Virus record (IMG/VR): IMGVR_UViG_3300033273_000437
Location: 1 to 57,898 of that record
Strand: one strand, 5' to 3'
Source: a virus
Taxonomy: Duplodnaviria; Caudoviricetes
DNA: 57,898 bases
A program made the translations under genes and the position numbers. Below are positions 4,735 through 49,230 of the stretch, piece by piece (positions within the stretch are counted from its first letter, which is position 1; every line of letters begins with the position of its first letter). The notes under the pieces are model-generated. The model had not been told where the DNA came from. It did not search any database and saw only the letters and a list, made by a program, of their open reading frames with translations.

Positions 4735-5016
4735 GTGGAACCTGTACTTCCGCTGAGCTTAGTGCTCAGTGTCGTGGGTGGGGCTGCTTCGGCATTCCTA
4801 ACACTTGGACGCAAATTCGAGACTATTGATCAAAAGCATCAAAACCACATCCATCTAGTAGATCAACGTATGGATGCAATTGAGTTGCGTCTGGCAAAGG
4901 ATTACGTTGACAAGGAAGATTTGGGAATGATCCTTAAGCGTTTGGATGACCGCATCGACAGGATGGACTATAAGTTGGATCAAATTCTTATTGGGTACAA
5001 TAAAAACGCAAAGTAG
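4735..5016 (+). CDS. Membrane-anchored coiled-coil protein of the lysis region
   Basis: N-terminal hydrophobic helix, then RLAKDYV..ED...RMDYKLD coiled coil. Confidence 0.55.
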   Translation: MEPVLPLSLVLSVVGGAASAFLTLGRKFETIDQKHQNHIHLVDQRMDAIELRLAKDYVDKEDLGMILKRLDDRIDRMDYKLDQILIGYNKNAK

Positions 5017-5028
5017 TTTTTACTTGTC

Positions 5029-5181
5029 ATGGGTATCGTTGAATCCCCAATTTTCTGGGTAGTGCTTGCTGCCGTGTCGGAGATTCTGGCGCTGATTCCT
5101 AACGAGAAGCTGAAATCCAACTCTATTTTTCAACTGCTTGTTGCTGGACTGAACGCTGTCCTGAAGGATCGAAAAAAGTAA
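5029..5181 (+). CDS. Holin-like 50-aa membrane protein (not in the ORF track)
   Basis: MGIVESPIFWVVLAAVSEILALIPNEKLKSNSIFQLLVAGLNAVLKDRKK*; hydrophobic; upstream of the endolysin. Confidence 0.65.
   Translation: MGIVESPIFWVVLAAVSEILALIPNEKLKSNSIFQLLVAGLNAVLKDRKK
5172..5178 (+). other. -1 ribosomal frameshift heptamer A_AAA_AAG
   Basis: CGA AAA AAG TAA ends the holin-like ORF; the -1 frame is open from here to 5459. Confidence 0.6.
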
Positions 5182-5249
5182 ATTGGCCTCCGGATGGTGA
5201 GATCCTATGGTCTTATCACTCACGATCCGTCTGGGAAGATATTCGCCGG

Positions 5250-5459
5250 ATGATTCGTGCTCAGAAGTTTTATAAGACTCTTCCGTCCAAGATTAAGCGG
5301 GCCGAACAGGAATGGCTTGACAGCCAGCCAACACCCAATACACCCAAAGCTCGGTTTATTGAGCATCCCCCTGATGGTTCAGAGGCTCAACAACTTTTGG
5401 GTGGTGCCCTGCAAGCTAAATATGAATTTTTAGACGATGACAACCTTCCCGGCGGGTAA
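5250..5459 (+). CDS. Hypothetical; probably the -1 frame extension of the holin-like ORF
   Basis: Frame is open from the slippery site through ATG 5250 to the stop at 5459. Confidence 0.55.
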   Translation: MIRAQKFYKTLPSKIKRAEQEWLDSQPTPNTPKARFIEHPPDGSEAQQLLGGALQAKYEFLDDDNLPGG

Positions 5460-6606
5460 GCTCGCTGACTTTTTCCGTTTTTACGACCCAAGCAACAAAC
5501 AGCATGTTGCGGCAGTCCTTAGGCTTCAAGATGACCTTGAAGAGACGGACCCCAGGCTTGTCTGTGATGATGCGGAATGGGTGAAGCTTTTTCGCACGCC
5601 CCTAGAGCAGCAGCCAGTCTCGGAGAAAGTTGATAACAGCTGGGGAGGTATCGTCACAGCTGCTCGTAACGCAGGGGCTAAGTTTCCTGAACTACTGGCC
5701 GCTCAGTGGGCACTTGAGAGCGGTTTTGGTAAGTACCCCTCAGGCACATGGAATTACTGGGGAGTCAAAGGCGGTGGACGCCGTCCGGAAATTACCTGTA
5801 CTCGTAAAGAAACTACTGAGTACATCAATGGTGAATGGATTACGACTTGCGCTTGGTTTAAGAACTTCGCCAGCATTGAAGAAGGGGCAAGCTACGTCGT
5901 AAACCGTTGGTACAAAGATTTTGAGCGCCACAAGGGTGTTAATCGGGCAAACAGCCGCGATCAGGCAGCGCACCTTCTTGTAGAAGAAGGGTACGCAACT
6001 GACCCTAAATATGCTGACAAGCTTATTGACCTTATGGATCAATATAGTCAGCCGCTATCTGCTCAAGATGGTTTAAGCGTTGAGTTACAGGTTCCTTATT
6101 TATCTCAGATTGATTCGGACACAGATCAAGGATTTCGCATGTGCTTCGCTAGCTCCTGCGCTATGGCCCTCGATTATTTGTGCCCTGGTGTCCTTAAAGG
6201 TCATAAGGATGATTTCTACCTTGAGAGGGTAAACGAATACGGCGATACGACCGATCCTTATGCCCAGCTTTACGCTTTAGAAAGTTTTGGACTTGAAGCT
6301 AATTTCCGTCAAGACTTAACGCTCGCCGATGTTAAAGATCAGTTGACCAAGGGATACCCAGTTCCAATTGGAGTACTTCATCAAGGCCCTAGTTCAGCAC
6401 CGGTTGGTGGTGGACATTGGATTACTCTTGTTGGTTTTGACGAAGATGGCTTAATCGTCAACGATCCCAATGGCGAGATGGATGTGCTCAACGGTTCATA
6501 CGTTAATCACACCAATGGTGACCACATCAGGTATTCCTATCAAAACCTTTTGCCACGCTGGTGTGTTGAAGGTGAGGGTTCTGGATGGGGAATTATTATC
6601 AAGTAA
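5437..6606 (+). CDS. Endolysin: glucosaminidase (GH73-like) domain plus C39-like cysteine peptidase domain
   Basis: AQWALESGFG, NYWGVK, GYATDPKYA; then VPYLSQ, CFASSCAM, GHWITLVG, NDP. Confidence 0.85.
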   Translation: MTTFPAGKLADFFRFYDPSNKQHVAAVLRLQDDLEETDPRLVCDDAEWVKLFRTPLEQQPVSEKVDNSWGGIVTAARNAGAKFPELLAAQWALESGFGKYPSGTWNYWGVKGGGRRPEITCTRKETTEYINGEWITTCAWFKNFASIEEGASYVVNRWYKDFERHKGVNRANSRDQAAHLLVEEGYATDPKYADKLIDLMDQYSQPLSAQDGLSVELQVPYLSQIDSDTDQGFRMCFASSCAMALDYLCPGVLKGHKDDFYLERVNEYGDTTDPYAQLYALESFGLEANFRQDLTLADVKDQLTKGYPVPIGVLHQGPSSAPVGGGHWITLVGFDEDGLIVNDPNGEMDVLNGSYVNHTNGDHIRYSYQNLLPRWCVEGEGSGWGIIIK

Positions 6607-6786: not shown

Positions 6787-6939
6787 ATGGCTAAAAGTAT
6801 TTCCGGTATTAACTTTGTAAAAGGGGCTCCTAAACGCACTCGTATAGGTGACGGACGAAGAGTCCGGTCGCACACAGCCACTGGCCGGACTAAACGTTCG
6901 AGCAACCGTAAGGTCTATCGAGGTCAAGGAAAGCGTTAG
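6787..6939 (+). CDS. Small basic 50-aa protein ending YRGQGKR (not in the ORF track)
   Basis: MAKSISGINFVKGAPKRTRIGDG...RKVYRGQGKR*; resembles recurrent marine-phage basic peptides. Confidence 0.6.
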   Translation: MAKSISGINFVKGAPKRTRIGDGRRVRSHTATGRTKRSSNRKVYRGQGKR

Positions 6940-7912: not shown

Positions 7913-8022
7913 TGTCTTGCGTGAGATAGGGGCATCCTGAAGAGGATAGAGGCTGCAACTGAGATCTATTGCGCTGCAGGCAATCTCATCCTACTTTGGA
8001 CACTCTGATGCCTTGTAAACAA

Positions 8023-9120
8023 ATGGGTAGACCCAATAGCAAGGAAAACTGGGTCTTAAAAAATGCTGTCCTATCTGAGATGGGCAGTAATTTCCGGATA
8101 CGACTGACTTCTCAGAGTCCTGTCTTCCAGATCCGCGCCCTCTGTCCATTTCCGGATGGTAAACACGCTAAGAGCAGCGGGATCTACTCGACGGAGCCGG
8201 GGGCTGTTGACCGGGCCTTCAAGCTGTGCCTTCATCTGGACGAGAACCCCAACGCCCTGGTGAAGGAGAAGGAGGCTGGAACAAAGCCAGGGTTCACGGC
8301 CTGGAGAGCCCTCTCTATGGAGCTGGAAGCCCACCTGCGGAAGCTGGGCATACAGATGACGCACCCCGACTACTGGAGGCATGCCAGTGCTCTGGCGAAG
8401 CTCAGAGGTGAAGTTGAGATCGCCAAGGTCGAGCGCTGGGTGGAAGAGTCTGCGGAGAACTCCAGGGAACGGACTAGGCGACTCGTGACCTGCAGCCGCT
8501 TGATCGAAATCGGTCTTGATATTGATCGGAACTGGATGGACCGGATTAAGTCGTGCAATAAATACAGCCCAAGTCAGGCAGTTGAACCTCGTTCCCTGCC
8601 ATCAGATGATCAAGTCGAAGTCTTTATTGACGGACTCAAAAACCGGGGTTGGCAAGTTGTGTTCGGCTACATCGCAACCTGGGGGCTTCGGAACCACGAA
8701 CCCTTTCGACTCCATAGCCAGCCCGATAGCGAAGGCTTGATCGAAATCTCAAATAATTCAAAGACTGGATTCCACGTTGTTACGCCTGCACACCCTGAGT
8801 GGATTGATCGTTGGAACCTCAGAGACTTCAAGTTGCCGGGGCATGACCCCTCAGCAACGCACGTTGAGCTAGGGCGAAGAGTCACCAAGTACATGGCACG
8901 TCACAGGCATCTTGCTACCTGGCGAGAGGATCCGAAGACCTATGACCTTCGACACGCCTGGGCTGCCCGTGTCCACACGCACCCGAGCTACAGCCATATC
9001 GAAGTCAGTGTGGCTGCAGAAATGATGGGCCACTCAGAGAAAGTCCACAAAGCGACCTATCTGAGGTGGACTGCAAAAGAAGATCTCAAGAGGCGTCTCC
9101 GTCAAAAGTTGGCGGCATAA
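8023..9120 (+). CDS. int: Tyrosine recombinase (integrase)
   Basis: GLRNHE (R), SKTG (K), LRHAWA (degenerate H-x-x-R), MGHS (H), TY (Y); start uncertain (7969/8008/8023). Confidence 0.88.
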   Translation: MGRPNSKENWVLKNAVLSEMGSNFRIRLTSQSPVFQIRALCPFPDGKHAKSSGIYSTEPGAVDRAFKLCLHLDENPNALVKEKEAGTKPGFTAWRALSMELEAHLRKLGIQMTHPDYWRHASALAKLRGEVEIAKVERWVEESAENSRERTRRLVTCSRLIEIGLDIDRNWMDRIKSCNKYSPSQAVEPRSLPSDDQVEVFIDGLKNRGWQVVFGYIATWGLRNHEPFRLHSQPDSEGLIEISNNSKTGFHVVTPAHPEWIDRWNLRDFKLPGHDPSATHVELGRRVTKYMARHRHLATWREDPKTYDLRHAWAARVHTHPSYSHIEVSVAAEMMGHSEKVHKATYLRWTAKEDLKRRLRQKLAA

Positions 9121-48063: not shown

Positions 48064-48290
48064 TGAATTACGAGTTGCTGGTCTCTGAAGACAAGCGCTC
48101 TTACTTCATTAACTGCCAAAGCAAAAACGGAATACTAAGAGTGGGGGCGGTTTTTATCGCCCCTTCTTCGTCTTCACCGATAAAACTTGTGGCTGAAAAT
48201 GGTGCTAAGTTGACGCTGACACTTCCACCTGAAGCAATTGGGCAGCCAATTGAAATGGTGGCTGTAGACACATCCTTTTTTATAGATTGA
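48063..48290 (+). CDS. Hypothetical protein
   Basis: TGATG coupling. Confidence 0.5.
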   Translation: MNYELLVSEDKRSYFINCQSKNGILRVGAVFIAPSSSSPIKLVAENGAKLTLTLPPEAIGQPIEMVAVDTSFFID

Positions 48291-48784
48291 TGAGCAAGTA
48301 CTCAGATCTGTTTTTCAAAGAAAAGGAATATTACGAGGTTGCTCCTTTTCGATTCCCTATTTACGAAGACCTCGTTGCAGGAGAGGCAGAGGGAGTAGAG
48401 AACATCGCCCGCAATCAAGCGCAGAACACTTACACCCTGCTAAAGATTGCAAAGCAAGTAGCCAAAAAGAAAAAGATCTCAGTCAAAGAGGCTCTCGATA
48501 TCCTTTCTGATACCGATAGCGATAACGAGGTTGTCTACGACTATGCCGAGGAACTGGCAGAAGTTCAGCGTTCTGGGAATAGCGTTGCAGAGCAACAGAT
48601 TGAGATGGTGACCTTGTTCATCCGCTATCGGGGTGAAATTCAGGATCCGGAGGGCAAGCTGGGCTGGATCACAGTCCCCGACTGGAAGCGAGAAGACACA
48701 CTCAATATGCCTACAAAGCTCATGAGTGACATTTTCGAGTTTGTCAACTGGGAACGTAATGGTTGGCCGGAGGAGGGAAAGTAA
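48290..48784 (+). CDS. Tail assembly chaperone (gpG-like)
   Basis: Ends GAG GGA AAG TAA; between the tube and tape measure genes. Confidence 0.8.
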   Translation: MSKYSDLFFKEKEYYEVAPFRFPIYEDLVAGEAEGVENIARNQAQNTYTLLKIAKQVAKKKKISVKEALDILSDTDSDNEVVYDYAEELAEVQRSGNSVAEQQIEMVTLFIRYRGEIQDPEGKLGWITVPDWKREDTLNMPTKLMSDIFEFVNWERNGWPEEGK

Positions 48785-49230
48785 CGCCGAGGGAACAGGA
48801 TCCAGAGGAGCTTATTAATTCTTATCAGACTTATCTAGCTTCTAAACCCCTCGACATACTCCACCTCTATCTACAACTTAGATGCACGCCTTATGGGGAA
48901 GACTACCCAAAGGAGGTGTTTCTTCGTACCCCAATGGGTTTGATTGGCTACGTTTTATCGACGTGGTATGACGAAGAAAAGCGCCGTGCAAACGTTAATT
49001 CGATAAGTACGGCTAAGTTATCTCAGATTGTCCTTTCTGTTGCTCATGCTTTTGGTGGGAGCAAAGAACCGAGTAGGACAAAGATATCTGACTTCTTGCC
49101 TTTTGAAATTGACGAGGACAAGGCTAAAGCAGAAGATATTACCAAACAGATATTGACTAAACTTATAAAGAGCGGTCGCATACCCACACACGTTGTAGCG
49201 GCACTTAATCAGCTTATAACCCCCGGATAA
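48775..49230 (+). CDS. gpT-like -1 frameshift extension (G_GGA_AAG at 48775-48781)
   Basis: Same heptamer as lambda G/T; -1 frame open to 49230. Confidence 0.82.
   Translation, partial: GKVTPREQDPEELINSYQTYLASKPLDILHLYLQLRCTPYGEDYPKEVFLRTPMGLIGYVLSTWYDEEKRRANVNSISTAKLSQIVLSVAHAFGGSKEPSRTKISDFLPFEIDEDKAKAEDITKQILTKLIKSGRIPTHVVAALNQLITPG

Follow-up and report, generated by a model that had tools for sequence, protein, structure and literature searches.

A conserved candidate signal for programmed −1 frameshifting in a small membrane protein gene of putative cyanophage lysis cassettes

A candidate slippery site directly upstream of an endolysin gene

The viral record IMGVR_UViG_3300033273_000437, analysed here over its full length of 57,898 nucleotides (nt; "the window"), carries at positions 5029–5459 of its plus strand a small gene for a membrane protein, followed directly by an endolysin gene. 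We suggest that this gene is very probably expressed as two isoforms, a short one and a C-terminally extended one, through programmed −1 ribosomal frameshifting at a slippery A_AAA_AAG heptamer. This reading is strongly supported by three features that emerged from comparison with related sequences: a heptamer conserved in two canonical forms, a coding constraint that switches frame at the heptamer, and −1 frames that lack a start codon. In the mechanism that we envisage, most ribosomes would read AAA AAG, meet TAA and release a membrane protein of 50 amino acids (aa), and a fraction, having moved back one base while on the two lysine codons, would take GTA as the next codon and go on for 93 codons. 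The resulting 143-aa isoform would carry the same membrane part followed by a hydrophilic, largely helical tail, and its reading frame would end over the endolysin start codon.

A preliminary description of this stretch had proposed a 50-aa open reading frame (ORF) ending in CGA AAA AAG TAA, a heptamer in the correct phase and a −1 frame that continues into an ORF beginning at 5250 to give a 143-aa fusion, all of which was borne out. The three sense codons lie at 5170–5172, 5173–5175 and 5176–5178, followed by the stop at 5179–5181; the heptamer occupies 5172–5178 in X_XXY_YYZ phase, and the −1 frame reads KKVNWPPDG... and stays free of stops up to the TAA at 5457–5459 (50 + 93 = 143 aa). The open stretch of the −1 frame begins 23 codons ahead of the heptamer and extends to 5459, 95 codons being open from the site, and it contains no ATG, GTG or TTG between its upstream stop and 5250. 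DNA contigs from three studies cover positions 4991–5700 and show the A run without an indel; the split in this window is therefore not an assembly error. The elements of the predicted signal are as follows.

5029–5181, plus strand: 0-frame ORF for the 50-aa putative short isoform, a small membrane protein with the basic C-terminus KDRKK (phrog_22542, E-value 2.9e-11, positions 5–48 of a 49-position profile)
5172–5178, plus strand: slippery heptamer A_AAA_AAG in X_XXY_YYZ phase (read, like the stop that follows it, from the sequence)
5179–5181, plus strand: 0-frame stop TAA abutting the heptamer, which ends the short isoform and is a possible stimulator
5178–5459, plus strand: −1 frame extension of 93 codons plus stop, hydrophilic, with a long predicted helix; its first 24 codons (5178–5249) would be read only after a shift
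5191–5229, plus strand: interrupted 10-bp stem predicted by RNA folding, pairing 5191–5201 with 5219–5229, 12 nt past the heptamer
5250–5252, plus strand: ATG within the −1 ORF, from which gene callers begin a 69-aa product; a possible additional start in this clade

Heptamers as such are not enriched in the window, where AAAAAAG occurs 10 times (12.5 expected) and GGGAAAG seven times (9.0 expected). The full configuration requires a heptamer that lies in phase within a long ORF, is followed at once by a 0-frame stop and opens onto a long −1 ORF; it is found at two of these 17 occurrences, the A_AAA_AAG at 5172 and a pair of ORFs at the tail-chaperone position, with its heptamer at 48775.

Conservation of the heptamer in relatives

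Conservation of the heptamer, the stop and the open −1 frame in homologues had been named in the preliminary description as a check. We surveyed IMG/VR with an alignment of the 0-frame protein only, because selecting on the extension was to be avoided, and took the best 80 of 339 relatives, 71 of which are distinct; these loci overlap partly with others found via the endolysin or the −1 product. The arrangement proved to be conserved in 67 of the 71 distinct relatives, as A_AAA_AAG in 52 and as G_GGA_AAG in 15, in each case in phase, 0–1 codon before the stop and with a −1 ORF of at least 40 codons. Beyond the site, the median open length among the relatives was 89 codons in the −1 frame compared to seven in the +1 frame. 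The loci found through the endolysin or the −1 product also keep the cassette: among 31 rows (the window and 30 loci, some of them duplicates), 23 read A_AAA_AAG TAA and six G_GGA_AAG with TAG or TAA, the remaining two being L015 (see below) and L026, in which A_AAA_AAG, read by eye, stands one codon before TGA.

Pooling of all sources yielded 88 distinct heptamer-bearing sequences; since bearing the heptamer was the condition for entering this set, heptamer frequency can be read only from the 67 of 71 relatives. In the pooled set, the first heptamer base belongs to a codon that encodes any of nine residues, the last heptamer codon is AAG in 88 of 88 sequences, G_GGA_AAG accounts for 22 of 88, and the 0-frame stop follows the heptamer directly (63 of 88) or one codon later (25 of 88). 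The variation of the first-base codon over nine residues, together with two canonical heptamers in the same place, indicates that the nucleotides are kept and not the amino acid. The same observations bear on transcriptional slippage, in which RNA polymerase would insert an extra A into the run, so that the same fusion would be encoded by the edited mRNA. Such an origin could be envisaged at the A runs of six to nine found at the site, one extra A giving a protein identical to the product of a −1 ribosomal shift, but it is highly unlikely: the G_GGA_AAG variant offers no long homopolymer, and a terminal G and a constant phase, which every run shows, are of consequence to ribosomes but not to polymerase. 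One RNA run was found, the contigs of which cover only 5385–5546.

We also looked for forms of the gene in which both parts occur in one ORF. In a word search of 5.8 billion proteins, the −1 ORF matched only products of 66–72 aa and longer relatives of the short protein were not found, a result of little weight. A profile search of 1.84 billion representatives gave 250 matches; the best 150, which were listed, are mostly 44–75 aa long, and 18 longer or atypical ones were fetched. Two single-ORF fusions stood out among these 18, P0057 and P0020 (101 aa), both singletons. P0057, a 148-aa protein from a 47.9-kb contig, has three lysines at the junction and shares 51% identity with the −1 product of locus L115 over 76 aa. 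The two proteins may be real fusions or may reflect homopolymer-length errors, in the case of P0057 an extra A in the run; several other fetched proteins look like out-of-frame read-throughs.

Homopolymer runs being error-prone, and P0057 reading through as one ORF, the split itself might be an artefact, due either to an assembly or homopolymer error or to a decaying gene that was split by a recent frameshift mutation. Yet the same split recurs in the 67 distinct relatives and in seven cultured, finished phage genomes (see below), the contigs of the three studies agree at the site, and both frames are under constraint. Given this conservation across relatives, an artefact is effectively refuted.

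The only "genome" matches of the short protein are contigs of metagenome-assembled genomes (L134–L138), labelled as proteobacterium, Gammaproteobacteria, Dehalococcoidia, TMED88 and Hyphomonadaceae. Phage contigs that were binned into such genomes are the probable explanation, and these matches do not point to a host.

The constrained frame switches at the heptamer

The ratio of non-synonymous to synonymous polymorphism (pN/pS) was determined in 22 distinct sequences (L015, L019, L026 and duplicates were left out). Over the 24 codons between the stop and the ATG position, it was 0.37 in the −1 frame compared to 1.28 and 1.36 in the other two frames, and variation fell on the third position in 23 of the 24 codons, on the first in 14 and on the second in 12. 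Upstream of the heptamer, pN/pS was 0.61 in the 0 frame compared to 1.24 and 1.04, and in the podovirus-type extension it was 0.52 in the −1 frame compared to 0.83 and 1.09. Low values in the 0 frame upstream and in the −1 frame downstream thus show that the frame under purifying selection changes at the heptamer.

Seven of 69 long −1 ORFs contain no ATG, GTG or TTG anywhere, and in 56 of 69 the first such codon comes at codon 10 or later, usually past a conserved PPDG motif. In L017 and the G_GGA_AAG clade, Ile or Lys codons stand at the position of the ATG at 5250, which most close relatives keep; in L017 and L022 the −1 ORF is without a canonical start throughout.

These data can be set against a model of two separate genes, according to which the downstream ORF would start alone, at the AUG corresponding to 5250 or at an upstream non-canonical codon, and the heptamer would be incidental to a lysine-rich end. 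Gene callers and database entries do give 66–72-aa products from an ATG, and the frequent retention of this ATG fits such a model; nevertheless, the 24 codons preceding it are under purifying selection in the −1 frame, and it is missing in the G_GGA_AAG clade, L017 and L022, with seven of 69 −1 ORFs lacking any canonical start. Likewise, a basic C-terminus is usual in small membrane proteins, so that the "KK" could reflect a constraint at the protein level, but the first heptamer base is kept even though its codon encodes nine residues, and the third codon is AAG throughout the 88 sequences. We consider separate genes very unlikely.

Cultured Synechococcus phages carry the signal

In tblastn searches, the short protein found homologues only in Synechococcus phages and one Mediterranean fosmid phage, besides one weak Microviridae match (E = 1). 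The signal is present in seven cultured Synechococcus phages of three morphotype groups, with −1 ORFs of 54–92 codons. The siphoviruses S-CBS1, S-CBS3 and KBS-S-2A have A_AAA_AAG with the stop one codon later, S-EIVl has G_GGA_AAG with the stop one codon later, and the T7-like podoviruses 7B11-B, S-B28 and WH11-B read A_AAA_AAG TAA. The siphovirus records annotate a shorter gene that starts within the conserved region, in S-CBS1 with TTG. In the finished podovirus genomes the extension ORF (54–64 codons) is unannotated; it lies at 2129–2293 of L040 (7B11-B), 2129–2323 of L042 (S-B28) and 1629–1796 of L046 (WH11-B). The unannotated −1 ORF of WH11-B and S-B28 overlaps the start of the next annotated gene.

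A homologue of the short protein is encoded beside an annotated lysozyme in S-CBS1, S-CBS3, P60, S-SRP01, DSL-LC07 and S-CBP3, and the −1 ORF of S-CBS1 and S-CBS3 runs over the start of this lysozyme gene. The more distant podoviruses likewise have the homologue abutting the lysozyme gene. The ORF pair of 7B11-B and WH11-B sits between the tail fibre region and the small terminase gene, the interval in which T7 has its holin.

A second site at the tail-chaperone position

The other full configuration in the window is G_GGA_AAG TAA at 48775–48784, which is in phase and joins ORFs 48287–48784 and 48763–49230 directly before the tape measure gene, with 151 codons open in the −1 frame; neither ORF has a PHROG match. 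G_GGA_AAG is the slip site of phage λ G/GT. By its classic position, the 48775 site is the expected tail assembly chaperone frameshift, and it has the same layout of heptamer and immediate stop as the site at 5172. The phage thus carries an internal example of the same signal architecture. The ORFs at 5029–5459 do not have the place of a tail assembly chaperone G/GT pair, which is expected between the major tail gene and the tape measure gene: they lie between minus-strand tail-fibre genes and the endolysin gene, and the pair at the chaperone position is 48287–49230.

Candidate stimulators and points against frameshifting

The preliminary description had pointed to a small downstream hairpin, GGAT-GGTGAG-ATCC. 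This hairpin is indeed present at 5192–5205, but its stem comprises only 4 bp and is not kept in relatives, and we rejected it as a stimulator on the latter ground. Across the pooled sequences, folding downstream of the site is mildly better than that of shuffled sequences (mean z −1.0; z ≤ −2 in 15 of 88), and strong local hairpins occur in a clade-specific manner, as in L110 and the S-B28 record L125 (both z about −3.9). For the predicted stem at 5191–5229, 73% of cells pair across 18 relatives compared to 24–42% in slid controls, with some covariation, although several pairs are broken in 6–11 of the 18 and the structure was derived from one of the sequences. The only feature common to all is the 0-frame stop at or beside the site. 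From what is generally known of "shifty stops", this adjacent stop could slow the ribosome.

As to the heptamer itself, the identification of A_AAA_AAG as the dnaX shift site in the preliminary description agrees with PMC5009743, according to which the site is highly shift-prone in E. coli because the only tRNA-Lys pairs weakly with AAG. Deprived of its stimulators, the dnaX site still gave 14% shifting in a cell-free assay, as stated in a preprint (10.1101/2025.10.02.679949).

Several observations count against frameshifting, or against a holin-type product, and have to be weighed with the evidence above. The site is absent from seven more distant cultured homologues (P60, S-SRP01, DSL-LC07, S-CBP1, S-CBP3, S-CBP4 and the fosmid phage MedDCM-S37-C6); those of P60, S-SRP01, DSL-LC07 and S-CBP1/3/4 are 65–76 aa long, with a hydrophilic tail in frame. 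Among the relatives, L067 (TCA AAG TAG, which still offers A_AAG beside the stop) and L076 (G_GGG_AAG) combine a long homologous −1 ORF with a non-canonical site, as does L015, whose contig ends 40 nt upstream and which keeps the −1 ORF behind C_AAC_AAG; in L108 and L114 (two of the 71 survey sequences) the extension is absent. The preliminary description had held that a lack of the heptamer in homologues, or an ORF starting alone at 5250, would speak against a fusion. The heptamer counts and the start-less −1 ORFs given above bear on these two points; in the window's clade, the ATG at 5250 could give an independent 69-aa product. In addition, no family-wide stimulatory RNA structure emerged (RNAalifold consensus of only −2.4 kcal/mol), Shine–Dalgarno (SD)-like motifs at dnaX-like spacing (6–14 nt) occur in only three of 88 sequences, and a host tRNA-Lys(CUU), if present, would lower slippage on AAG. 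As regards the protein, the second hydrophobic stretch of the short form is too short for a clear second membrane helix, and no described holin family was matched: searches of Pfam, PHROGs and NCBIfam returned function-unknown families only, and the Atlas neighbours are unnamed.

The cassette and its predicted products

The window, from a marine cyanophage, encodes siphovirus-type proteins, including large terminase, portal, protease, a 1576-aa tape measure, DNA polymerase and ribonucleotide reductase; the best match of the portal is that of Synechococcus phage S-CBS4 (37% identity). The plus-strand cassette (4735–6606) lies downstream of minus-strand tail-fibre-like genes. It begins with a gene for a 93-aa protein and ends with the endolysin gene, which flank the elements listed above.

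4735–5016, plus strand: first cassette gene, 93-aa protein with an N-terminal hydrophobic segment and a coiled-coil-like remainder (phrog_12220, E-value 2.2e-13, function unknown)
5437–6606, plus strand: endolysin, 389 aa, glucosaminidase plus C39-like peptidase (phrog_10051, 1.3e-116; PF01832, 2.9e-16; PF13529, 7e-11)

Of 87 related loci, 75 have a homologue of the transmembrane/coiled-coil partner (81–94 aa in relatives) in the flanks that were retrieved, and 47 have one of the window's endolysin. In blastn comparison of the cassette with phage records, the sole match was 86 nt in the lysozyme. NCBIfam gave nothing for the three small cassette proteins; the nearest named Atlas cluster of the 93-aa protein is a Mu-like releasin family, at a score (0.92) too low to rely on.

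The short protein has a clear hydrophobic segment at residues 6–24, a weaker amphipathic one at residues 30–46 and the KDRKK end. It is thus small, with at least one membrane helix and a charged C-terminus, as is typical of holins, and in the window its gene has a holin-type position directly upstream of the endolysin gene. The designation as a lysis gene in the preliminary description accords with gene order, i.e. with the place beside the endolysin gene in siphoviruses and in the interval between tail fibre and small terminase genes in T7-like cyanopodoviruses; it finds no counterpart in the known holin families searched. Gene order by itself makes a role in lysis reasonably probable.

Pfam searches with 51 extensions gave only scattered matches with E-values above 0.02. 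An AlphaFold2 model of the extension, based on 51 sequences, shows a confident long helix at residues 20–51 of the query (5172–5456) and little else (mean predicted local distance difference test 73, predicted template modelling score 0.35). The extension is modular: a shared N-terminal module, made of PPDG and a KFY-containing helix behind it, precedes C-terminal motifs that come in alternative forms. In siphoviruses, the end of the −1 ORF invariably overlaps the start of the following gene. The product of that gene (in the window the endolysin, 5437–5600; in L062, 1612–1780; and others) has a conserved region of about 55 residues at its N-terminus, with a motif beginning KL.DFF, before at least two different catalytic domains. 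The overlap and this conserved N-terminal domain together suggest that the long isoform and the endolysin may be linked, by binding or by termination–reinitiation.

In the latter case, translational coupling might be the main purpose of the site: shifted ribosomes would terminate and reinitiate at the endolysin start, the slip rate would meter the endolysin, and the extension peptide would be secondary, an arrangement that resembles an older frameshift model of the MS2 lysis gene. The endolysin gene starts within the −1 ORF, 23 nt from its end, S-CBS1 and S-CBS3 show the corresponding overlap with the lysozyme start, and no SD-like motif was seen before the endolysin ATG at 5437. A merely secondary peptide is at odds, however, with the amino-acid constraint on the extension and its conserved modules, and the podovirus extension is not followed by an endolysin gene. 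Coupling as the main purpose is therefore unlikely in our view, although coupling and frameshifting to produce an extended isoform can hold together.

Two further ORFs lie beyond the endolysin gene. A very basic ORF of 45–50 aa with a conserved YRGQGKR end (6787–6939, plus strand) follows it, and an ORF of the YRGQGKR type is also located at 2347–2484 of L062, behind an endolysin with a different catalytic domain; it may be a further cassette member. A 383-aa ORF (7969–9120, plus strand) has no Pfam or PHROG match at the thresholds used. By resemblance alone, it is a possible integrase of the tyrosine-recombinase-like kind, and its presence would then point to a temperate phage.

Discussion

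Frameshifting at A_AAA_AAG or G_GGA_AAG, two products from one gene and a holin-type or accessory protein in a lysis cassette together form, in our view, the best explanation of the data as a whole, and a probable one. The gene would belong to the lysis cassette and would most likely encode a holin-type or holin-accessory membrane protein. The rate of slippage would fix the proportion of the two forms, of which the long one may modulate hole formation or its timing, or couple endolysin supply to hole formation.

The proposed mechanism is the ordinary X_XXY_YYZ frameshift known from dnaX and G/GT; what is new is its place, in a membrane protein of a lysis cassette that would exist in a short and an extended form. 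E. coli dnaX (tau/gamma) and the OrfA/OrfAB of IS3-family elements use the same heptamer in the same phase and make two products of one gene at a set ratio, as described in PMC5009743. In dnaX, the site is accompanied by an upstream SD-like element and a downstream hairpin, whereas no conserved stimulator was found here and the 0-frame stop abuts the site. Moreover, the dnaX shift shortens the protein, whereas the shift proposed here would lengthen a membrane protein.

Tail assembly chaperones offer a further parallel. The G/GT frameshift of tailed phages, reportedly set out by Xu, Hendrix and Duda in 2004, likewise relies on a heptamer where the first ORF ends to make a short and a C-terminally extended product; the alternative site G_GGA_AAG is the one present in 15 of the 71 relatives, and the phage's own pair before the tape measure gene uses G_GGA_AAG TAA. 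Gene family and process differ, however, with a tail chaperone in one case and a small lysis-cassette membrane protein in the other.

In phage λ, S105 and S107 are a dual-start holin/antiholin pair that differs by two N-terminal residues. The logic would be shared, one lysis gene giving two membrane proteins that differ at one end and whose ratio is fixed by translation. In λ, however, the difference arises from alternative starts and is N-terminal, whereas here a 93-residue C-terminal tail would be added by the predicted frameshift, and antagonism in the λ sense could be proposed by analogy at most. We consider it rather unlikely that the long form acts specifically like an antiholin.

The preliminary description had remarked that frameshifting is not familiar in lysis genes, which is broadly right; the only precedents that we found are the expression of the MS2 lysis gene and a lactococcal phage lysin. 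The latter is reportedly encoded in two overlapping genes according to a reference entry, and thus represents a phage lysis function split over two frames, but it concerns the lysin enzyme itself. Work on MS2 lysis-gene expression is said to go back to Kastelein in 1982 and Berkhout in 1987. In MS2, out-of-frame ribosomes likewise end near the start of the lysis gene, as the −1 ORF ends over the endolysin start here; the MS2 shifts, however, are rare and unprogrammed and yield no functional fusion, whereas here both the site and the fused peptide are conserved. PMC10885494 states that the MS2 lysis gene is expressed via frameshifting or termination in the coat gene. The portions consulted of the literature on frameshifting with holin or antiholin, on PRFect and phage frameshifts and on cyanophage frameshifting or lysis, with the cultured-phage genome papers and the PRFect supplement outside this scope, contained no published description of the arrangement, and the accessible part of a 2016 recoding review does not mention "holin".

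A more far-reaching proposal would extend to cyanophages of marine and fresh waters, T7-like podoviruses as well as siphoviruses: slippage on A_AAA_AAG or G_GGA_AAG would, by its rate, set the lysis clock via the stoichiometry of holin and extended isoform, with the long form serving as an antiholin or membrane tether and siphovirus ribosomes metering the endolysin as well. We regard this proposal as speculative and rather improbable; if true, such a recoding-based lysis timer would be without a described counterpart.

To our knowledge, tail assembly chaperones are almost the only genes of tailed phages for which programmed frameshifting has been described. The two classic slip sites are here kept in a different gene, both in hundreds of cyanophage sequences and in cultured phages whose hosts can also be grown; as such phage–host pairs exist, the frameshift is directly testable. 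If it is real, it would add an unannotated protein of about 100–150 aa to many cyanophage genomes and would present a natural case of a bare heptamer with an adjacent stop working without an obvious stimulator in cyanobacteria. It would also provide a concrete handle on cyanophage lysis, a process that is poorly understood and relevant to carbon release in the ocean.

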